Part shown: in pieces, positions 22,785 through 48,500 of the stretch
Numbering within the stretch: the first letter of the stretch is position 1
Layout of the letters: every line of letters begins with the position of its first letter
Source of the DNA: an uncultured Chloroflexia bacterium
GTDB lineage: Bacteria > Chloroflexota > Limnocylindria > Limnocylindrales > CSP1-4
NCBI GenBank assembly: GCA_963783055.1
Contig: CAWAMB010000004.1
Location: 1,763,368 to 1,827,367 of the forward strand
Direction: 5' to 3'
Length of the DNA: 64,000 nt
The notes under the pieces: model-generated
Told to the model about the DNA's origin: nothing
Seen by the model: the letters and a program-made list of their open reading frames with translations, nothing else
Databases searched by the model: none
Position numbers and translations under genes: made by a program

Positions 22785-24452
22785 TCAGACCTCGACCACG
22801 ACCGGGAAGACCATCGGGCGGCGTTTCGTCTGCTCGTACAGGAAGCGCGACACGCCGTCCTTGATCTGGGTCTTGAGGAGCGCGATCTCGCTGATGTGAT
22901 CGCCCGGGTTCTTGATCGAGGTCAGGATCCGCTCGATCGCCTCGGCCATCATCGGATCCTGCTCGTTCTGGTGGACGAAGCCGCGGGTGATGATCTCCGG
23001 CCGGCCGACCACGTTGCCGGTCTGCTTGTCGATCGTCACGACGACCATGAACATCCCGTCGTTCGCGAGCGACTTGCGGTCGCGCAGGACGACGTCGCCG
23101 ACCTCGCCGACCGACAGCCCGTCGACGTAGACGTAGCCGGCCGGGACCGGCTGGCCGCGATGGGCGACCCCGTCCGTGTCGATCTCGATCGGCTGGCCGT
23201 TCTCGATGATGAACACGTTCTCGGGCGCGACGCCGGTCTCGATCGCGAGCCGGCCGTGCTGGACCTGCATCCGGAACTCGCCGTGCATCGGGATGAAGTA
23301 CTTGGGCTTGGTCAGCCCGAGCATCAGCTTCAGCTCTTCCTGGCTGGCGTGGCCGGAGACGTGGGCGCGCTTGATCGTGTGGTAGAAGACGTTCGCGCCG
23401 GCCTTGAACAGGTTGTCGATCGTCCGGCTGACGTATTCCTCGTTGCCGGGGATCGGGCTGGCGCTGACGATCACCGTGTCGCCCTGCTGGATCTCGACGA
23501 AGCGGTGATCGCGGTTGGCCATCCGGGCGAGACCGGCCATCGGCTCGCCCTGGGCGCCGGTCGTGCAGATCACGAGCTTGTCGGCCGGGATCTCGTTGAG
23601 CTTGTCCTTGGCCACGATCATCGACGGGTCGTAGGACAGGTAGCCGAGATCCGTCGCGATCCGGAAGTTCTGCTCCATCGACCGACCGATGACGGTCGTC
23701 TTGCGCCCGAACGAGGCGGCGGCATCGAGGACCTGCTGGACGCGCGCGATGTTGCTCGCGAAGGTCGCGACGATGACGCGGCCGTCGAGCGGCTCCATGA
23801 TCTCGCGGAACGCCTCGCCGACGGTCCGCTCGGACGGCGTGTAGCCCGGGTTCTCGGCGCGGGTCGAGTCGGACAGCAGGCACACGACGCCCTCGGCGCC
23901 GAGCTTGGCCAGGATCGCGAAGTCGGACAGCTTGCCGTCGACCGGCGTGTGGTCGAACTTGAAGTCGCCGGTATGGACGACGACGCCGGCCGGCGTCCGG
24001 AGGGCGATCCCCATCGCGTCCGGGATCGAATGGCCGATCCGGAAGGCGACGACCCCGAACGGCCCGATCTGGACCTCGTCGCCGGGCTCGAGAGCGAGGA
24101 TCGGGTTGTTGTGGAGCTTGTGCTCCTTGATCTTGTTGCCGAGCAGGCCACGGGCCAGCGTCGAGGCGTAGACCGGCACGCCCGGGAACTCGGGCAGGAC
24201 GTACGGCAGGGCGCCGACGTGGTCCTCGTGGGCGTGGGTGATGAGGAAGGCCTTGACCTTGGCCTTGTTCTCCTTGAGATACGTGATGTCGGGGATGACG
24301 AGGTCGATGCCGAACATCTCCTCGTCGGGGAACATCAGGCCGCAGTCGATCACGACGATGTCGTCGCCGTACTCGAACACGTACATGTTCTTGCCGATTT
24401 CGCCGACCCCGCCGAGCGGGATGATGCGAAGGGAATGGTTTGCGGTTGGCAT
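22785..24452 (-). CDS. rnj: Ribonuclease J
   Basis: 555-aa ORF with the metallo-beta-lactamase/beta-CASP motifs ITHAHEDHVGALPY and HVSGHASQEEL. It resembles RNase J over its full length. Confidence 0.9.
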   Translation of the reverse strand: MPTANHSLRIIPLGGVGEIGKNMYVFEYGDDIVVIDCGLMFPDEEMFGIDLVIPDITYLKENKAKVKAFLITHAHEDHVGALPYVLPEFPGVPVYASTLARGLLGNKIKEHKLHNNPILALEPGDEVQIGPFGVVAFRIGHSIPDAMGIALRTPAGVVVHTGDFKFDHTPVDGKLSDFAILAKLGAEGVVCLLSDSTRAENPGYTPSERTVGEAFREIMEPLDGRVIVATFASNIARVQQVLDAAASFGRKTTVIGRSMEQNFRIATDLGYLSYDPSMIVAKDKLNEIPADKLVICTTGAQGEPMAGLARMANRDHRFVEIQQGDTVIVSASPIPGNEEYVSRTIDNLFKAGANVFYHTIKRAHVSGHASQEELKLMLGLTKPKYFIPMHGEFRMQVQHGRLAIETGVAPENVFIIENGQPIEIDTDGVAHRGQPVPAGYVYVDGLSVGEVGDVVLRDRKSLANDGMFMVVVTIDKQTGNVVGRPEIITRGFVHQNEQDPMMAEAIERILTSIKNPGDHISEIALLKTQIKDGVSRFLYEQTKRRPMVFPVVVEV

Positions 24453-24484: not shown

Positions 24485-25258
24485 CTAGAAGATCGTGATG
24501 TCGGGCGCCGGCTCCGGTGCGGGAGCGAACGCGAGAGCTGGTTCGAGGGCGCGCGGGTCGTCGGCGACCGGCTGGGATTCGGCGGAGGTGGTGGTGGCGC
24601 GTTCGGTGCTGCCCGCCGCGGCAGGAGCGGCCGACGCGGCGGCGGCCGACGCGGCGGCGGCGTCCCGGCGAGCGCGCACGTCGAGCAGGACCTGTGGCAC
24701 CTTCGCCACGTCGGCGTAGCTCTGGCGCTCGACCTCGGCGCCGCGCAGTGCGGCTGCCGGGTGGTACATCGCGAAGACGGTCGCGTCGCGGGCGCCGCTC
24801 GCCGGATCGACCGGGCCGATCGTGCCGTGGGCCTGGCTGATCCGGGCGCCCGGCATGAAGCGGCCCATCGAGTGCCGGCCGAGCGTGACGATCAGGGCCG
24901 GATCGAGGATCTCGAGCTGGCGCTTGAGATACGGCGCGCAGGCCGCGACCTCATCGGGCTCCGGATCGCGGTTGTCGGGTGGCCGGCACTTGACGACGTT
25001 CGTGATGAAGACGTCCTCGCGCCGCCACTCGATCGAGCCGAGGAGCTTGACGAGCAGGTCGCCGGCCCGGCCGATGAAGGGCCGTCCGAGGCGATCCTCG
25101 TTGAACCCGGGCGCCTCGCCGACGAGGACGACCTCGGTGTCGGGGCTGCCCTCGCCCGGCACGGCGTTGGTCCGGCCCTCGGCGAGCCGGCAGCGGGTGC
25201 ACGTCCGAACCTCCGATGCGACCGCGTCGAGCGCCGCGCGGCGCTCGGCCTGGGTCAT
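24485..25258 (-). CDS. Uracil-DNA glycosylase, family 4, with an Ala-rich C-terminal tail
   Basis: 257 aa from the ATG at 25258. It has CTRCRL Fe-S cysteines, GEAPGFNEDRLGRPFIGRAGDLL and HPAAALR. An ATGA overlap joins it to the asd stop. Confidence 0.85.
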   Translation of the reverse strand: MTQAERRAALDAVASEVRTCTRCRLAEGRTNAVPGEGSPDTEVVLVGEAPGFNEDRLGRPFIGRAGDLLVKLLGSIEWRREDVFITNVVKCRPPDNRDPEPDEVAACAPYLKRQLEILDPALIVTLGRHSMGRFMPGARISQAHGTIGPVDPASGARDATVFAMYHPAAALRGAEVERQSYADVAKVPQVLLDVRARRDAAAASAAAASAAPAAAGSTERATTTSAESQPVADDPRALEPALAFAPAPEPAPDITIF

Positions 25259-26355
25259 GCCGGGGCCCCGATCGCGGTCCCCTCCACGTGGTACGGCGTC
25301 GCACCCCGGACGGCGGCCGAGCGGACCCAGTCGCGGGCGACGAGCGCCTCCGCGATCTGGACGGCGTTCGTGGCCGCTCCCTTGCGGAGGTTGTCGCTGA
25401 CGACCCAGAACGCGATCCCGCGATCGTCCGCGATCGACGGGTCCTGGCGCACGCGCCCGACGAAGATCTCGTCGCTGCCGGCGGCCTCGGTGGCCAGCGG
25501 ATATGTCGAGGTGGCCGGATCGTCGCGGACGAGGACACCGTCGACGGCGGCGAACAGCTCGCGCGCACGATCGGGCGTGATCGGGTCGCGGGTCTCGACG
25601 TGGACGGCCTCCGAGTGGGCGACGAAGACCGGCACGCGGACGGCGGTGCAGGACACGCGGAGATCGGCGAGGTGGAGGATCTTGCGGCTCTCCTCGACGA
25701 CCTTCCACTCCTCCTTCGTGTAGCCGTTGGGCAGGAACACGTCGACCTGGGGCAGCGCGTTGAACGCGATCTGGTGGGGATAGACCGATACGCTCTTCGC
25801 CTCGCCGGCGACGTGCGCCCGAATCTGGCCCTCGAGCTCGCGGATCGCCTCGCCGCCGGTGCCGGACACAGCCTGATAGGTGTCGACGACGACCCGCTCG
25901 AGACCGACGGTGTCGCGGAGGGCCATGAGGACGGGGACGAGCTGCATCGTCGAGCAGTTCGGATTGGCGATGATCCCCGGGTGGCCTTCCAGGTCGGCGG
26001 CGTTGACCTGGCTGACGACGAGCGGGATCTCCGGGTCCATCCGCCACGCGGACGAGTTGTCGATGACGGTGGCCCCGCGAGCGACCGCGAGCGGCGCGAG
26101 CTCGCGCGACGTGCCGGCGCCGGCCGAGAACAAGGCGATGTCGACCCCCTCGAATGCCTCGTCGGTGGCCGCTCGGACCTCGAGGGTCTGCCCGTCGACG
26201 GAGATCATCCGGCCGGCCGACCGCTCGGAGGCGAGCAGGCGCAGCTCGCCGACCGGGAACTCCCGTTCGAGCAGGATCTGGATCATCGTGCGCCCGACGA
26301 CGCCAGTGGCGCCGACGACCGCGACGGTGAGGGATGGGCGTGTCATGTCGGGCAT
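25255..26355 (-). CDS. asd: Aspartate-semialdehyde dehydrogenase
   Basis: It has VAVVGATGVVGRTM (the NAD(P) fold), the active-site IIANPNCSTMQL and VSDNLRKGAA. The start is ATG 26355 or 26346. Confidence 0.9.
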   Translation of the reverse strand: MPDMTRPSLTVAVVGATGVVGRTMIQILLEREFPVGELRLLASERSAGRMISVDGQTLEVRAATDEAFEGVDIALFSAGAGTSRELAPLAVARGATVIDNSSAWRMDPEIPLVVSQVNAADLEGHPGIIANPNCSTMQLVPVLMALRDTVGLERVVVDTYQAVSGTGGEAIRELEGQIRAHVAGEAKSVSVYPHQIAFNALPQVDVFLPNGYTKEEWKVVEESRKILHLADLRVSCTAVRVPVFVAHSEAVHVETRDPITPDRARELFAAVDGVLVRDDPATSTYPLATEAAGSDEIFVGRVRQDPSIADDRGIAFWVVSDNLRKGAATNAVQIAEALVARDWVRSAAVRGATPYHVEGTAIGAPA

Positions 26356-26392
26356 GGCTCCGCTGTCACTGTCGCTGGCAGGGCACGGCGGG

Positions 26393-26401
26393 AGTATAGC
26401 A
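26393..26401 (-). promoter_or_regulatory. Extended -10-like nonamer TGCTATACT 38 nt upstream of asd
   Basis: It lies in the 56-nt gap between the GNAT stop and the asd ATG, and is followed by CCCGCCG. Confidence 0.45.
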
Positions 26402-26411
26402 GCGGGTCGTC

Positions 26412-26858
26412 TCAGCCCGGCCGATGGGTCGAGCGCTCCATCCACCGCTCCGGCGCCGCCAGCGGCTCGAACCCGAAGCGCCGGTACACGTCGTGCGCGT
26501 CGCGGGTTGCCAGAACCATCCGGCGCAGACCCGCGAGACGGGGATCGCCGACAACCGCCGCCATCAGCCTGCTCCCCACCCCGCGTCCGCGCTCGTCCTC
26601 GGCGACGAAGACGTCGCAGATCCAGGCGAAGGTCGCTCCGTCGGTGATGACGCGGGTGAAGGCGATCTGCCGGCCGGCACGGTGGGCGCTGAAGCAGAGT
26701 GACCCGGCGATCGCGGCGTCCATCCGCTCGCGCGTGCGGCCCAGCGCCCAGTAGGCCCGCTCGGAGAGGGCGTGGAAGATCCAGTCATGGTCGAGATCGG
26801 CCGGATCGGTGCTGATGCGGACGGCATCATCGCCACCTGCCGCGAGGTCGTGCGTCAC
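26412..26858 (-). CDS. GNAT family N-acetyltransferase
   Basis: 148-aa ORF with VFVAEDERGRGVGSRLMAAV (the acetyl-CoA motif) and a C-terminal YRRFGFEP. Confidence 0.8.
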   Translation of the reverse strand: MTHDLAAGGDDAVRISTDPADLDHDWIFHALSERAYWALGRTRERMDAAIAGSLCFSAHRAGRQIAFTRVITDGATFAWICDVFVAEDERGRGVGSRLMAAVVGDPRLAGLRRMVLATRDAHDVYRRFGFEPLAAPERWMERSTHRPG

Positions 26859-26894
26859 GCGCGGACTCCAGGAGGATCGGACGGGGGAATCGTC

Positions 26895-26919
26895 GAGCCG
26901 CCGGCGGGGCCGGCGGCTC
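26895..26919 (-). terminator. GC-rich hairpin downstream of pnp (candidate rpsO-pnp operon terminator)
   Basis: A perfect 11-bp stem, GAGCCGCCGGC-nnn-GCCGGCGGCTC, sits 26 nt after the pnp stop. On the minus strand it is followed by gacgauucc, a weak U tract. Confidence 0.5.
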
Positions 26920-26944
26920 GCTGCGCCTGTGGCGCGATTGCGGG

Positions 26945-29530
26945 CTAGCTGGACACCGGCTCCTTGGCGAGATGGCGCTGCATCGCCGCCTTGCGGGACA
27001 GGTTGACCCGTCCCTGGCGATCGACTTCCATCACGACGACCATCACCTCGTCGCCGACGGACACGACGTCCTCGACGGTCGGCACGTGGTAGTCGGCCAG
27101 CTCGCCGATCCGGACGAGGCCTTCCTTGCCCGGCAGGATCTCGACGAACGCGCCGAAGCCCATGATCCGGGTGACCTTGCCGAGGTACAGCGCCCCGACC
27201 TCGACCTCGCGGGTGAGGCTCTCGATCCAGGTGATGGCCTTGCGGGCGTTCTCGCCGGAGACGGCCGCGATCTCGACCGTGCCGTCGTCCTCGACATTGA
27301 TCTCGGTCGAGGTCTCTTCCTGGATCTTGCGGATCATCGATCCGCCCTTGCCGATGATCTCGCGGATCTTCTCCGGGTTGATCTTGATCGTGGTGATGCG
27401 CGGCGCGAAGTCGCTCATCTCGCCACGGGCCTCGGGCATGACCTCGGTCATCTTGTCGAGGATCTCGAGGCGGGCCGCCAGGGCCTGCTTCAGACCGTCG
27501 CGGATGATGGCCTCGTTGATGCCCTGGACCTTGATGTCCATCTGGAGGGCGGTGATCCCGTCGCGGGTGCCGGTGACCTTGAAGTCCATGTCACCGACCG
27601 AGTCCTCCTTGCCGAGGATGTCGGTCAGGACGACGAACCGGCCGTCGGGCTCGCTGATCAGGCCCATCGCCGCGCCGGCGACGGGAGCCGAGATCGGCAC
27701 CCCGGCATCCATCAGGGCGAGGGTCGAGCCGCAGGTCGAGGCCATCGAGGTCGAGCCGTTGGAGCTCATGCACTCGGACACGAGCCGGATGACGTACGGG
27801 AACTCGTCGTGCGGCGGGAGCACCGGGATCAGCGCCCGCTCGGCGAGGTTGCCGTGCCCGATGTCGCGCCGGCTGGGGCCGCGCATGGGCTTGTTCTCGC
27901 CCGTGGAATAGGGCGGGAAGTTGTAGTGGTGGATGTACTTCTTCTCGGTCTTCGGGCTGATCGTGTCGATCCGCTGGACGTCCGAGGACGCCCCGAGGGT
28001 CGCGATCGTCAGGACCTGCGTCTCGCCGCGGGTGAAGAGGCCGGAGCCGTGGGCCCGGGGCAGGATGCCGACATCGACCGAGATGTCGCGCAGCTGCGTC
28101 GTGCCGCGGCCGTCCATCCGGATGCCCTCGTCGAGCGCCAGCGTGCGGCACGTCTTCTTGTAGACGAGGCTCCACAGGTTCTTGCTGAGGCGGGCCTTGC
28201 GGCGAGCGTCCTCGAGCTTGGTCTTGGCCTCGTCCTTCGAGGTCCGGTTGGCGCGGACCGCGTCGGAGATCTCGGCCTTCGCGGTGGCGATCCGGCCCGG
28301 CAGGTCGGTTGCGAAGCGGAGCAGCAGGTTGGCCGTGGCCTCGGCGTCCGGCACGGCCCGGTGGCTCTGGGTCAGATCGACCCCGAAGAACCCGGCCAGG
28401 GTGTCGAGCTTGTAGTTCTGGAGATCCGGATAGCCCTCGCGGGCGATCGTCAGGGTGTCGAGGTAACGGTCCTGCGCGTAGCGCGGGGCGCCGGCCTCCT
28501 CGAGGAACCCGAGGTCGAACACGACGTTGTGACCGACGACGATGGCGTCACCGATGAAGTCGACGGCCTGCTTGGCCGCGTCGGCCGGGCTCGCCCCCTT
28601 CGCGACGTCCTTGTCGGTGATGCCGTGCATCTGGTTGCCGAGGATCGGCTGTGACGGCTTGACGAACGTCGACCAGCGATCGCTGATCTTGCCGCCCTTG
28701 ACCTTGACGACGCCGATCTCGAGGAGGTCGGACATCTTCGGGTCGGTGCCGGTGGTCTCGACATCGACGATCGCGAACTCGCGCTTGGCGTCGACGGCGG
28801 CCACGAAGTCGAGGACCGAGCCGGTACCGGGCTCGAGGTAGGGCGAGCGCTTGGGCTTGCCGACGGCCTCGCGGAGCTGCTCCTGGATGTCGATGAGCGG
28901 CTGCAGCGCGCGGTGGCCGAACAGGATCGCCTCGGCCATGACGTCCTCGGGCAGGAGCTTGGCGCCCGCCTCGACCATCATGATGGCGTCGCGCGTGCCG
29001 GACACGATCAGGTCGAGCTCCGAGTCGGCGAGCTCGCTGAAGGTCGGGTTGACGACGAACTCGCCGCCGATGCGGCCGATCCGGACGGCGCCGACGGGGC
29101 CGGCGAACGGGATCTCGCTGATCGTCAGGGCGGCCGACGCGGCGATCGTGCCGAGCACGTCGGGCTCGTTCTCCTGGTCGGTCGAGAGGACCGTGATCAC
29201 GAGCTGGATGTCGTCCTTGTAGCCCTCGGGGAAGAGCGGCCGGATCGGGCGGTCGGTCAGGCGGGCGGCGAGCGTCGCGGCCTCGGAGGCACGCGCCTCA
29301 CGCTTGATGAAGCCGCCCGGGATCTTGCCCGCGGCGTACATCCGCTCCTCGAACTCGACCGTCAACGGGAAGAAGTCGAGGCCGGGCCGGGGGTCCGACC
29401 GGTTGGCCGTCCCGAGGATGAAGGTGTCGCCGTAGCGGACCGTGACGGCCCCGCCGGCGAGTCGGGCGAGCTTGCCCGTCTCGATGGTCAGCGTGCGACC
29501 ACCGATCTGCGTCTCGAATGTCTGAGACAA
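26945..29530 (-). CDS. pnp: Polyribonucleotide nucleotidyltransferase (PNPase) with an inserted DEDDh 3'-5' exonuclease domain
   Basis: 861 aa from the TTG at 29530, with AAGGAGG 8 nt upstream. It has two RNase PH domains (second PH motif [16 protein letters not shown]), KH ([11 protein letters not shown]) and S1 ([23 protein letters not shown]). Extra ExoI/II/III motifs lie at about 28310-28790. Confidence 0.9.
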
Positions 29531-29672
29531 GGGAATGTTCCTCCTTGGTCGTGGAGGAAGGAAGCGACCTGCTGCAGGTTGGCCGTCTGCGCCTGGCTGA
29601 ACGTCGAGTGCGGTCGGACCCGGATGGCCCGGGGTCAACTACCCCGGATCCCTTCGGGGTTCCGTGCTGACG
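29531..29672 (-). promoter_or_regulatory. rpsO-pnp intergenic leader with stem-loops (candidate attenuator/processing region)
   Basis: The minus-strand RNA can form GGAACCC-CGAA-GGGAUCC (about 29646-29663, right after the rpsO stop) and CCGGGG-UAGUUGA-CCCCGG (29629-29647). The function is inferred only by analogy with rpsO-pnp leaders elsewhere. Confidence 0.4.
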
Positions 29673-29942
29673 CTAGCGGCGGAGTCCGAGCCGTCCGATG
29701 ACGGCGCGGTATCGCGTGTTGTCCTTCTTGATCAGATAGGCAAGAAGGCGCCGACGCTGGCCGACGAGCTTGAGGAGGCCGCGACGCGAATGGTTGTCCT
29801 TGGGGAAGCTGCGGAGATGGTCGGTCAGGCTCCGGATCCGCTCGGTCAAGAGCGCGATCTGGACCTCCGGCGACCCGGTGTCACCTTCCTTGGTGGCATA
29901 CCCGGTCATGATCTCCTGCTTCTGTTCCCGCGCGAGCGGCAC
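29673..29942 (-). CDS. rpsO: 30S ribosomal protein S15
   Basis: 89 aa from the GTG at 29942, with a GGAGGA RBS. It has [51 protein letters not shown]. Confidence 0.95.
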
Positions 29943-29995
29943 TCGTTCCTCCGAAACACGAACTTCTTCGTTGCTGTTCTTTCTATGACCGGCGA

Positions 29996-30004
29996 ACGGT
30001 AGCA
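29996..30004 (-). promoter_or_regulatory. Extended -10-like nonamer TGCTACCGT about 53 nt upstream of rpsO
   Basis: The same nonamer sits immediately upstream of the DUF3291 gene. The leader between it and the GTG is unusually AT-rich (cauagaaagaacagcaacgaagaaguucg). Confidence 0.45.
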
Positions 30005-30055
30005 CGAGTCCGGTTTGGCGGGCAAGCGAAGAGGTACGTGGTTCGCCTTGCCCGA

Positions 30056-30574
30056 TCAGGCCGGAACGGGCGTCGGCCAGCAGAACTCCGCGTCGATCTC
30101 GGACGGGTCGGGGGCGGCCGATCCGGGCGGGCCGAACGGCTGGCGGAAGGTGAAGGCCTCCGCAGTGGGGCCGTCGCGGCGGAGGCGCTCGACCCGTTCG
30201 AGGGCCTCCTGCGGGCTGGGCAGCGCCCCGGCTTCGATCCACCACAGGGCGAAGTGCGGCTCGATGTGGCGCTCGAACCAGGCCCGGCGCTGGCGGAGAA
30301 CGTCCGTGTGCGCCGTGGCGTACGTGAAGTCGCGGAGCGTCTCGATCGACTCCCAGACGGACAGGTTGATGATGAACAGCTCGTCGTCGGTCAGGTGGAT
30401 GTCGGTGGCGTTGCCGACATCGGATTTGAGGCGCCAGACATAGCCGGGACTCGCCTCGGCCAGCCGGTTGATCGGGTCGAGGCCGGCGACGAAGCCGGCG
30501 ATCCGGGCGTCATCGATCGGGGCGAGGAGCCGGCCGACATTGATCTGAGCCAGATGGAACGGTTTGTCGCTCAT
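30056..30574 (-). CDS. DUF3291 domain protein
   Basis: It has [17 protein letters not shown]...VWRLKSD...[20 protein letters not shown], typical of DUF3291. I prefer ATG 30574 (MSDKP...), 7 nt after a -10 nonamer, which would make it leaderless. The listed ORF starts at GTG 30583. Confidence 0.75.
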
Positions 30575-30581
30575 GGCGGGC

Positions 30582-30590
30582 ACGGTAGCA
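30582..30590 (-). promoter_or_regulatory. Extended -10-like nonamer TGCTACCGT 7 nt upstream of ATG 30574 (candidate leaderless promoter of the DUF3291 gene)
   Basis: Minus strand reads ggTGCTACCGTgcccgccATG. The nonamer is identical to the one upstream of rpsO. Confidence 0.45.
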
Positions 30591-30642
30591 CCGGGCGCGG
30601 GCCGTCGCCGTCGATCCGGTCCGAGCCCGGCAGCTCCGGCGT

Positions 30643-30800
30643 CACCAGCCAGGCTGGTGCTCCGGCCATCGTCGACACCGTCATGTCCGGGTCACCAGCC
30701 GGGCTGGTGCGCGGGTGGGACCTCGGGGCCGGGTGCCCGAAACACCAGTTGGACTGGTGGTATCGGGGATCAGCTCGAGGTAGCACCACCCGAGGTGGTG
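30643..30800. repeat. Array of four related 17-bp palindromes (CACCAGCC-N-GGCTGGTG type), three of them exactly 50 bp apart
   Basis: The copies are CACCAGCCaGGCTGGTG at 30643-30659, CACCAGCCgGGCTGGTG at 30693-30709, CACCAGTTgGACTGGTG at 30743-30759 and CACCACCcgaGGTGGTG at 30784-30800. The last lies inside the 3' end of the HTH-nuclease ORF. Confidence 0.8.
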
Positions 30801-31552
30801 TTCCGGTCAGTCAGGGCGGTCGACGAGCGTGGCCGCGCACGAACGCGTTGCCCTGCCCCCAGTCGAGCCACCGGAGCACCAGCCGCACCGGTAGCCCGAA
30901 GGAACCAGATCGAACGCAAATCGCCAATCGGCTCCTGGATCCAGCGCCGCGTCTGGACCGTCCGGCCCGGCAGCGTCGTCGCGAACGTGGCGGTGTGCGC
31001 CGCGACGGCATCGCGAGACGTTGACGACGCTGGCAACACGAGGATCCTGGCGAGGCTCGCTGGGCGCCAACCCCGCTCGCCCGGCAGGACTTCGCGCGCG
31101 ACTCGGACCTTCCGGTCGAGCGTCCCGAGCAACTCCTGGAGGTCGACGATCCTCGTCTTCACCTCGATCACCGCAAGCGCAGCTCGGGCCGGATGCCAGG
31201 CCAAGACGTCGACGGCCCCGCGCTCGCCGAACCGATTGAACGACCACTCGACCTCGCTGAACCAACCGCCAGTACGAAACTCAGTGACGACTGCCTCGAC
31301 GATGGCGGCGTGCCCCGCGTCGAGCAGCCGATCGAGTTCGGGGCCGCGCCAGCGTGGCGCAATCGAGGTCTCGATCCCGAGGACGGCGCAGACCCGACGA
31401 AGGGTGGCCAGATCGACCTCCTCGAGGCGTCCGAGATCGATGATCGAGACCGTTTGCTGCGAGACGCCGGCTCGTCCCGCAACGTCCCGCTGGCGTAGCC
31501 AAAGCCGCCTGCGGATCGCGCGGATGATCGAGCCGACCCGGATGTCGTCCAC
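30770..31552 (-). CDS. XRE-type HTH protein fused to a PD-(D/E)xK-like nuclease-fold domain
   Basis: 260-aa ORF from a GTG start. The N-terminal HTH is IRAIRRRLWLRQRDVAGRAGVSQQTVSIIDLG. The central GERGAVDVLAWHPARAALAVIEVKT fits D-x13-E-x-K. The domain call comes from the motif only. Confidence 0.6.
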   Translation of the reverse strand: MDDIRVGSIIRAIRRRLWLRQRDVAGRAGVSQQTVSIIDLGRLEEVDLATLRRVCAVLGIETSIAPRWRGPELDRLLDAGHAAIVEAVVTEFRTGGWFSEVEWSFNRFGERGAVDVLAWHPARAALAVIEVKTRIVDLQELLGTLDRKVRVAREVLPGERGWRPASLARILVLPASSTSRDAVAAHTATFATTLPGRTVQTRRWIQEPIGDLRSIWFLRATGAAGAPVARLGAGQRVRARPRSSTALTDRNTTSGGATSS

Positions 31553-46912: not shown

Positions 46913-47866
46913 TCAGACGTTGGCGGGCTCGGCCTTCTCGGCGGCCTCGCGGGCGAGCTCGGCGGCGATCTCCTCCGGGCTGGCCTCGGCGGCGGGTGCC
47001 GCCTCGGCGACCGGGGCGATCGGGCGGGCGCCCGGGAGGAGCTCGTCCTCGTCGGCGTCGGGCTCGAACGAGAGCGCCTTGCCGCCGGCGAGCGCGGCGA
47101 CGAGCTCATCCGAAGCGGTCTCGTCGAACTCGGGCTCGGCCGACTGGACGACCTCGGGCTCGGGCTCGCTGGCGCGCGCCGCGCGCTCCTGCTGGCCTTC
47201 GATGCAGGCATCCGCGATCAGCGTGCACAGCAGGCGGATCGAGCGGATGGCGTCGTCGTTGGCGGGGATGATGTGGTCGATCTCGTCGGGGTCGACGTTC
47301 GTGTCACCGGTCGCGACGACCGGCAGCTCGAGCTTGTTCGCCTCCGTGACCGCGATCCGCTCGCGATGCGGGTCGATGATGAAGATCGCGCCGGGGACGC
47401 GCTTCATCTTGCGCATCCCGCCGACCGTCAGGGTCAGCTTGTTCATCTCGTCGGTGAGCTTGGCGGCTTCCTTCTTCGTCATCCGCTCGAAGTCGCCGGC
47501 CTGCTGGCGGGCCTCGAGCTGCTCGAGCAGAGAGATCCGCTTCTTGATGGTCGTGAAGTTGGTGAGCATGCCGCCGAGCCAGCGCTTGTTGACGAAGGGC
47601 TGGCCGGCCCGGTTCGCCTCCTGCATGATCGGCTCCTGGGCCTGCTTCTTCGTGCCGACGAACAGGACGTACTCGCCGTGGGCGACCGTCTCGCGGACGA
47701 AGTCGAGGGACGACTCCAGGTGCTTGACCGTCTGGGCGAGGTCGATGATGTGGATGCCGTTGCGCTCGGCGAAGATGAAGGGCTTCATCTTCGGGTTCCA
47801 GCGCCGGGTCTGATGTCCGAAGTGGACGCCGGCTTCGAGCAGCTGCCGCATGGAAACGTTCGGCAC
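46913..47866 (-). CDS. rpsB: 30S ribosomal protein S2 with an acidic C-terminal extension
   Basis: 317 aa from the GTG at 47866, with an AGGAGG RBS. It has [22 protein letters not shown] and [12 protein letters not shown]. Confidence 0.95.
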
Positions 47867-48077
47867 GGGGAGAGGCCTCCTGTCGGTGTGTTCCTCCGCG
47901 GACTTCTGTCGCCGGGTCTCCGGTCCCGTCGCGTGTCGAGACGCCTGCGCGCTCGGTCGTGAGGGTCCGGCACCGCCCCGGTCGGAACGGTCCGCGTGTG
48001 ATCTCCGTCGCCTCGGCGGTTGCCTGCGGCGCGGGTGGTGTCTTGGTCGGTCCCGGGCGTGCCCGGAGCCGGCGCGG

Positions 48078-48086
48078 AGTGTAGCA
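48078..48086 (-). promoter_or_regulatory. Extended -10-like nonamer TGCTACACT about 210 nt upstream of rpsB
   Basis: An exact nonamer followed by CCGCGCC. It would give a long rpsB leader. Confidence 0.4.
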
Positions 48087-48128
48087 CGGGCCCGCTTCCG
48101 GGCCGAACGGAGCGCCTCCCGGCCGCGG

Positions 48129-48500
48129 TCAGAAGGCGGCTCGGTGATGGCGAATCCGCTGACCGGCGGCGTCGTTGGACGGCTCGACGACGACGAGGTC
48201 GAAACGGACGGGGAGGCGTGGGCCAGAGGACGCATCCAGCCAGCGGCGCGCCCCATCGTGGAGGCGGGCACGCTTGCGATGGTCGACCGTCTCCTCGGCG
48301 ATCCCGAAGGCGCGCGATCGCCGCCACCGGACCTCGACCACCACAAGCTCGCGCGGCGGGCCAGGATCGATCGCCACGATGTCGAGCTCCGCGCGCCCTG
48401 CGTGCACCTGGCGAGCGAGAATCGTCCAGCCGGCGGCGGTCAGGCGGTCGGCGACGGACGCCTCGGCAGCGTCGCCGGCGCGTTGTGCAGGGGTTCGCAT
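48129..48500 (-). CDS. yraN: YraN family (UPF0102) endonuclease-like protein
   Basis: 123 aa with [24 protein letters not shown]...ELDIVA...LVVVEVR, matching the YraN pattern. Confidence 0.8.

Follow-up and report, generated by a model that had tools for sequence, protein, structure and literature searches.

We have found, in a 64,000-nucleotide stretch of contig CAWAMB010000004.1 from an uncultured soil Chloroflexia bacterium of the class Limnocylindria (hereafter the window), a pnp gene that encodes a polynucleotide phosphorylase (PNPase) with a second exonuclease domain in its interior. We are highly confident that this DEDDh domain is real and ancient, that it is competent for catalysis, and that the PNPase enclosing it is functional. 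PNPase itself is very well known, but this form of it, shared by the whole clade, is undescribed.

Score, motifs and fold all assign the insert to the DEDDh/DnaQ-like superfamily, and hydrolytic activity is predicted for it. The Pfam model RNase_T (PF00929) matched residues 254-403 of the pnp product, corresponding to nucleotides 28322-28771, at E=7.4e-25; the score was 88.8 bits, where the cut-off is 24, and the insert taken in isolation reached 91.1 bits. In NCBIfam, the isolated insert matched the PRK07883-type DEDD, PolC and DinG exonuclease modules with E=1e-35 to 1e-38. When the PDB was searched with phmmer, the insert aligned over its full length with the exonuclease domain of Thermotoga PolC (2p1j, E=4e-25), and its DxE, HNxxFD and Hx4D motifs stood in register, residue by residue, with the catalytic motifs of that structure. 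An earlier note on this DNA, made from the letters alone, had read three DEDDh motifs in order in this region. Its motif strings and its position for the D256 codon are exact, and the exonuclease assignment it built on them is borne out by the highly significant PF00929, NCBIfam and 2p1j matches, which lie well outside what chance would give. At the ExoII site, one of the 26 homologues examined is garbled, apparently by a frameshift.

The insert modelled alone with AlphaFold gave a mean predicted local distance difference test score (pLDDT) of 87.7 and a predicted template modelling score of 0.84. In Foldseek searches with this model, the exonuclease domains of Staphylococcus aureus DinG, PolC and DNA polymerase III (Pol III) epsilon were nearest, with template modelling (TM) scores of 0.69-0.71 and root-mean-square deviations of 2.3-2.7 Å. 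RNase T (TM about 0.62-0.65) and ExoX came next, and Orn appeared only at rank 49-50 or so. We also considered whether the insert could be an orthologue of Orn, RNase T, PolC or DinG. Against the full-length equivalogs it scored 128.6 bits for PolC (cut-off 873) and 115.8 bits for DinG (cut-off 789), and the match to each is confined to its exonuclease module. Among the PDB phmmer matches to the insert at E<=1e-3 there was no chain of Orn, REXO2 or RNase T, and no Orn model was among the best 25 NCBIfam matches listed for it. Because these membership tests fail, the insert is not an orthologue of any of the four.

Concerning the host protein, the pnp product is a PNPase family member by all the sequence tests applied, save the Pfam model of the helical linker. 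It scored 939.4 bits against TIGR03591 (cut-off 525), in two stretches split by the insert, and 933.5 bits against NF008805 (cut-off 471), and Pfam found two RNase_PH, two RNase_PH_C, one KH_1 and one S1 domain in it. The linker model, PF03726, had no match in the product; this linker is poorly conserved across all PNPases. The phosphorolytic residues H559, S593-T594-S595, D643, D649 and K651 are invariant among the 26 homologues. In the alignment they correspond to H403, S437-439, D486, D492 and K494 of the Escherichia coli enzyme, which have roles as phosphate- or metal-binding residues (PMC2723993).

The linker between the two RNase PH-like domains is 232 residues long here as compared with 77 residues in PDB 5yjj, a net gain of about 155 residues. 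This gain equals the size of one DEDDh domain, and therefore the segment represents a pure nested insertion and not a replacement. Based on the alignment with PNPases lacking the insert and on the secondary structure predicted by AlphaFold, the insertion point lies after the first helix (residues about 237-247) of the alpha-helical linker domain. Past the insert, the TIGR03591 match resumes with its second stretch at profile position 251-258 or so, the listed start of 258 corresponding to residue 418. The earlier note had estimated an extra length of about 150-190 residues and had described helical linker remnants on both sides of the exonuclease, and the present comparisons agree with it on both counts. 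It had also placed the exonuclease between the two RNase PH domains, at 28310-28790. The RNase_T match does lie between the PH halves and within that interval, but the domain is not simply between them: it is nested in the helical linker, past helix 1.

The full-length AlphaFold model, built from a shallow alignment of 26 close homologues, had a mean pLDDT of 46 with a poorly modelled PH core. Foldseek matches for that core (TM about 0.1) were set aside as meaningless, and only the insert part of the model was usable. In this model, helices are predicted on both sides of the insert, at residues of about 237-247, 405-427, 432-446 and 450-468. Strand 1 of the insert begins only some four residues past the end of linker helix 1, and the ExoIII helix with H390 and D395 is predicted as one helix of about 36 residues (392-427) that extends into the linker and is followed by the helices at 432-446 and 450-468. 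Both junctions are thus short or helical, and the model therefore suggests that the DEDDh domain is a rigid graft rather than a tethered domain.

Expansions of 55-150 residues were also seen in the same helical linker region of two other PNPases from the search of representatives described below (P0151, 899 residues; P0196, 944 residues). These are helical, coiled-coil-like or of low complexity, and contain no folded domain. The helical linker of PNPase appears to be a hotspot tolerant of length change.

The occurrence of the insert in relatives was followed in two ways. On the one hand, a set of homologues was assembled from the 120 best clusters in the JGI, ENA, NCBI and Logan assemblies, at 83-96% identity; PF00929 lay inside a PNPase of about 861 residues in all 120, several of them on contigs of 0.3-2.8 Mb. 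On the other hand, one genome per GTDB species was scanned with the insert alignment as the query, which returned at least 398 loci with a relative, and the best 80 were inspected. The insert was fully covered at 63-92% identity in each of these 80, some of them on Mb-scale long-read contigs, and the pentad D256-E258-D339-H390-D395 was intact in every one. Because the same in-frame junctions recur across independent assemblies, an assembly artefact is excluded even without read mapping, and the chimeric assembly that the earlier note had entertained can be dismissed.

Substitution rates were compared by the Nei-Gojobori method for 300 pairs drawn from 62 full-length genes. The ratio of nonsynonymous to synonymous substitution (dN/dS) was 0.32 for the DEDDh insert, 0.16, 0.20 and 0.15 for PH1, PH2 and KH-S1, respectively, and 0.57 for the N-terminal linker remnant against 0.44 for the C-terminal one. 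Therefore, the insert is under clear purifying selection, looser than that on the core domains and tighter than that on the flanking linker. At third codon positions the GC content (GC3) of the insert, 0.94, agrees with the 0.94-0.98 of the remaining gene, and overall GC content matches likewise. No donor paralogue of the insert was found in the window or in the flanks of the 80 related loci, the single weak match being rpsB. Considering the GC3 match, and the occurrence of the insert both in soil lineages and, at 69% identity, in freshwater Limnocylindrus, the insert is not recently acquired.

In five loci of long-read metagenome-assembled genomes (MAGs; L047, L048, L051, L071 and L072), the pnp reading frame is interrupted. 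We rejected a pseudogene reading of these loci: each carries a single frameshift, beyond which about 86-94% identity continues in another frame, and the interruptions are probably sequencing indel errors. One further MAG contains two insert-bearing pnp loci of equal identity to the window (L020 and L021, on CAYMTJ010000019.1 and CAYMTJ010000068.1), which may reflect either a duplicated gene or a bin of mixed strains.

A PNPase with a nested DEDDh domain characterizes the Limnocylindria lineage, in which it is common; at this search depth, none was seen in other lineages. The named carriers are Candidatus Limnocylindrales, Limnocylindria, and MAGs labelled generically as Chloroflexota or 'Chloroflexia'. 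Three short contigs labelled Verrucomicrobiia, Patescibacteria and Thermomicrobiales (L033, L067 and L076) bear the same insert at 63-66% identity, and are most likely misbinned Limnocylindria contigs. We also searched 1.84 billion proteins clustered at 50% identity exhaustively with HMMER and looked at the best 150 representatives. Among these, only one other full-length cluster (P0121; 864 residues, 69% identity, motifs intact) had the architecture in a single stretch, and its members include Candidatus Limnocylindrus sp., a freshwater genus. The remaining full-length proteins were ordinary PNPases whose matches were split into two or more stretches, the nearest at 59% identity, and no nested DEDDh domain was seen in a PNPase from outside the clade among these 150. 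Ten unusually long PNPases of 899 to 1,219 residues in the same set were examined as possible analogues and rejected; their extra length consists of additional S1 or KH domains, terminal tails, and helical or low-complexity linker expansions, with no folded enzyme domain in the linker.

The earlier note knew of no described PNPase with this architecture, and our full-text literature searches, which included a 2026 paper on Limnocylindria genomics, found no description of it either. What has to be amended is its setting: the architecture is not peculiar to this genome but is that of the normal Limnocylindria PNPase, which is already in the databases under the plain names 'polyribonucleotide nucleotidyltransferase' or 'DNA polymerase III epsilon subunit family exonuclease'.

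The coordinates of the gene, its domains and its motifs are collected in Table 1. A longer minus-strand open reading frame (26945..29638) encloses pnp. The earlier note had started the 861-residue product at the TTG codon at 29530, and this product is correct, because the TTG is preceded by GGAGG and because the homologues start at the identical residue and are 860-864 residues long. The locus has the canonical order truB-ribF-rpsO-pnp, and the gene for S15 lies upstream of pnp in 74 of the 80 related loci; we consider pnp to be the single housekeeping PNPase gene of this Limnocylindria bacterium, and the insertion in it is old.

Table 1. Features of the pnp locus in the window, with residue numbers of the 861-residue product.
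Feature	Residues	Nucleotides	Strand	Basis and remarks
pnp gene, PNPase with nested DEDDh domain	1-861	26945..29530	-	TTG start 29530, stop 26945-26947
Shine-Dalgarno GGAGG		29540-29544	-	9 nt upstream of TTG start; read from sequence
First RNase PH-like domain	1-223	28862..29530	-	Pfam RNase_PH + RNase_PH_C; aligns with 5yjj residues 18-238
N-terminal remnant of alpha-helical linker, including helix at about 237-247	224-250	28781..28861	-	AlphaFold secondary structure, alignment
Nested DEDDh (DnaQ/PolC/DinG-type) 3'-5' exonuclease domain	251-405	28316..28780	-	Pfam, NCBIfam, PDB, AlphaFold, Foldseek
ExoI motif D256-V-E258 (DVETTG)	256-258	28757..28765	-	Invariant in 26 homologues and 80/80 species loci; D256 codon 28763-28765
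ExoII catalytic D339 (VVGHNVVFD)	339	28514..28516	-	Kept in 80/80 species loci
ExoIII motif H390-x4-D395 (SHRAVPDAE)	390-395	28346..28363	-	Invariant in 26 homologues and 80/80 species loci
C-terminal remnant of alpha-helical linker (three predicted helices counting 392-468)	406-455	28166..28315	-	AlphaFold secondary structure, alignment
Second (catalytic) RNase PH-like domain	456-700	27431..28165	-	Pfam
KH domain	713-770	27221..27394	-	Pfam KH_1, E=6e-11
S1 domain	776-847	26990..27205	-	Pfam S1, E=3e-17
rpsO (ribosomal protein S15)		29673..29957 (start approximate)	-	Directly upstream of pnp; Pfam Ribosomal_S15, E=3e-34

The rpsO-pnp intergenic region (29531-29672, minus strand) forms a leader of 140 nucleotides with a GC-rich, hairpin-like stretch, ccccgaagggatccgggg, at about 29640-29660, which could be the rpsO terminator or a processing site in the pnp leader. 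Positions 26000-31000 were scanned against Rfam for a leader of rpsO or pnp, and nothing matched. Downstream of pnp, on the minus strand, lie asd (aspartate-semialdehyde dehydrogenase, 25255-26445), directly followed by an open reading frame of the uracil-DNA-glycosylase superfamily (about 24485-25250), and a full RNase J gene with beta-CASP, RMMBL and RNase_J_C domains (22785-24452), 2.5 kb from pnp. A small GNAT acetyltransferase (26412-26858) sits between asd and pnp. The proximity of RNase J to pnp suggests an RNA-decay toolkit built on RNase J. Elsewhere in the window, the rpsB open reading frame (ribosomal protein S2; 46913-48346, minus strand) comes, as called, with a long N-terminal extension rich in Arg and Pro; the frame has probably been called too long in this high-GC genome.

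Our best explanation is that a PolC/DinG-like DEDDh domain was inserted long ago into a loop of the PNPase helical linker and has been retained since. In the fuller form of this explanation, whose chances we regard as evenly balanced, the protein is a bifunctional phosphorolytic and hydrolytic 3'-5' exonuclease of RNA in which the hydrolytic domain has a finishing or back-up role. Each protomer would then hold two sites: a phosphate-dependent one in the second RNase PH domain, releasing nucleoside diphosphates (NDPs), and a Mg2+-dependent hydrolytic DEDDh site, releasing nucleoside monophosphates. As in any PNPase, RNA would be gripped by KH and S1, and its 3' end would pass through the ring and so reach the phosphorolytic site. 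The three DEDDh domains of the trimer would stand on the face opposite KH and S1, beside the side pore leading to the phosphorolytic site and held by short, largely helical connections, and they would hydrolyse the 3' ends that phosphorolysis leaves unfinished. The likeliest substrates would be the limit oligonucleotides of a few nucleotides released by PNPase. More widely, any single-stranded 3' end may be attacked when phosphate is scarce or the reaction tends backwards. We infer the hydrolytic activity, the choice of RNA over DNA as the substrate, the placement on the trimer, and the hand-over between the two sites.

Separate DEDDh enzymes, namely Orn, REXO2 and RNase T, do the finishing job elsewhere. 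The human PNPase-SUV3 degradosome leaves products of 4-5 nucleotides that the DEDDh enzyme REXO2 must clear, and this clearing sustains the action of PNPase (PMC7261184). In E. coli, the DEDD enzyme Orn is an essential finisher (PMC9779919). Regarding the placement, in E. coli PNPase the ring face carrying the helical domain is the one opposite S1/KH, and this domain contributes to a side pore through which NDPs and phosphate probably reach the phosphorolytic site (PMC2723993). Because the helical domain lies there, the DEDDh domains would probably be located at the distal face near the side pores, away from the side at which RNA enters. The idea of a built-in finisher predicts Limnocylindria genomes without Orn, NrnA, NrnC, RNase R and RNase II. 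What speaks against the finishing role is that the insert is related most closely to DNA-associated exonucleases (PolC, DinG, epsilon and Cas2-DEDDh) and not to Orn or RNase T, and that Orn-type dinucleotidases are dimers with a dedicated 5'-phosphate pocket. A stronger proposal, which we put forward tentatively and hold to be possible yet doubtful, is a self-contained, exosome-like machine of dual chemistry. In it, a 3' end or limit oligonucleotide would be passed between the phosphorolytic site and the grafted DEDDh site at the distal face or side pore, so that RNA could be converted entirely to mononucleotides without phosphate or a separate nanoRNase.

Several known systems are instructive for comparison. 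Canonical bacterial PNPases (E. coli 3cdi/7ogk, 5yjj, and Caulobacter 4am3) share with the Limnocylindria enzyme the order PH1, helical linker, PH2, KH and S1, the phosphorolytic residues and the rpsO-pnp locus. However, they are without a nested domain, whereas the Limnocylindria PNPase has a folded DEDDh domain of 155 residues in its linker, which PF03726 does not match. The PolC exonuclease domain (2p1j and 9qpc) is the best match in sequence (E=4e-25 to 5e-21), matches in fold with TM 0.71 and has the same DEDDh motifs, and it too is a DEDDh domain set within a further domain of its larger host enzyme. The host of the PolC domain, however, is a templated DNA polymerase, and that of the insert a phosphorolytic RNase. 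The N-terminal DEDDh domain of Gram-positive DinG (S. aureus 8zef/9ii8; Bacillus subtilis) is the top Foldseek match (E=2e-12, TM 0.69), with an NCBIfam match of E=7.5e-35 for the insert alone. In both cases, a DEDDh module is fused to a nucleic-acid motor or processing enzyme, but in DinG it is fused terminally to a helicase, whereas in Limnocylindria it is nested in an exoribonuclease.

With respect to function, the pathway of PNPase and a DEDDh oligoribonuclease (E. coli Orn; human mitochondrial PNPase-SUV3 with REXO2) combines the same two chemistries, with a DEDDh hydrolase finishing products of a few nucleotides, and by analogy the insert may work like the partner in such a pair. These are separate enzymes there and one polypeptide here, and the insert is not an orthologue of Orn or REXO2. 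The eukaryotic RNA exosome is also close in concept: there, a PH ring with an S1/KH cap is combined with the hydrolases Rrp6 (DEDDy) and Rrp44, one of which is at the end of the channel opposite the cap. The exosome ring is catalytically dead and its hydrolases are separate subunits. The ring of the Limnocylindria PNPase, by contrast, retains an intact phosphorolytic site, and its hydrolase is nested covalently and is of the DEDDh rather than the DEDDy type.

The ancestry of the insert allows another substrate. The DEDDh domain could act on DNA or RNA:DNA hybrids, for instance in 3'-end resection or R-loop clearing during DNA repair or replication stress, and not in bulk RNA decay. Its closest relatives by sequence and fold, the PolC exonuclease domain (E=4e-25), the DinG exonuclease, Pol III epsilon and Cas2-DEDDh, agree with such a role, and the PNPases of B. 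subtilis and mycobacteria have reported activities on DNA 3' ends. B. subtilis DinG is reported to degrade linear single-stranded DNA 3'-5', and the title of that report terms DinG an exo(ribo)nuclease (PMC12525004). However, DEDDh domains of this group commonly take both RNA and DNA, and the likeness does not settle the substrate. The host protein is a canonical RNA-decay PNPase at the rpsO-pnp locus with KH and S1 intact, and the locus has no linkage to DNA-repair genes except the nearby open reading frame of the uracil-DNA-glycosylase family. We consider a DNA role unlikely, yet a serious alternative. Less probable again is that the domain polices the reverse reaction of PNPase, trimming heteropolymeric 3' tails beside the NDP/phosphate pore so as to keep net degradation or tail length. 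Such an enzyme would be likened to a polymerase with an attached proofreading exonuclease; the insert is indeed most similar to polymerase-attached exonuclease domains (PolC and epsilon), and the proposed conduit for NDPs and phosphate is the pore lined by the helical domain. Yet the proposal is purely inferential, since the sequence says nothing on tails, and productive use of that pore by RNA has been argued to be unlikely (PMC2723993).

A catalytically silent domain would act only as a module for structure, RNA binding or partner docking, and its dN/dS, about twice that of the core domains, could be read in this way. Inactivated DEDD domains typically lose their catalytic residues, whereas all five are kept here in 80 of 80 species, down to about 63% identity of the insert, and we regard a silent module as very improbable. 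The chance that assembly made a chimera here, or that this contig alone recently took up a mobile or intein-like insertion, is practically negligible in view of the shared junctions (120/120 clusters and 80/80 species genomes, from many projects and platforms), a base composition and GC3 that match the host gene, and the lack of a second copy in the window or the locus flanks.

In summary, the domain architecture of PNPase is among the most constant in bacteria and organelles, and an environmentally abundant, uncultured class of Chloroflexota has added and kept a second catalytic domain of different chemistry in the helical linker, the part of PNPase that is least understood. Under the routine annotation 'polyribonucleotide nucleotidyltransferase', this clade-wide architectural change goes unseen. 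No concept is overturned unless hand-over between the two sites is demonstrated. If the nested domain is active, the protein would be a case in which nature has joined phosphorolytic and hydrolytic 3'-5' decay covalently, and would provide a 'Rosetta-stone' link in favour of a direct functional coupling of PNPase with DEDDh finishers. It would also give a handle on the role of the helical domain and the side pore, and a compact enzyme perhaps able to break RNA down fully in the absence of phosphate. If the dual-chemistry machine holds true, Limnocylindria would possess a covalent bacterial counterpart of exosome-Rrp6/Rrp44 and of PNPase-REXO2, and the enigmatic pore of the helical domain would gain its first function.

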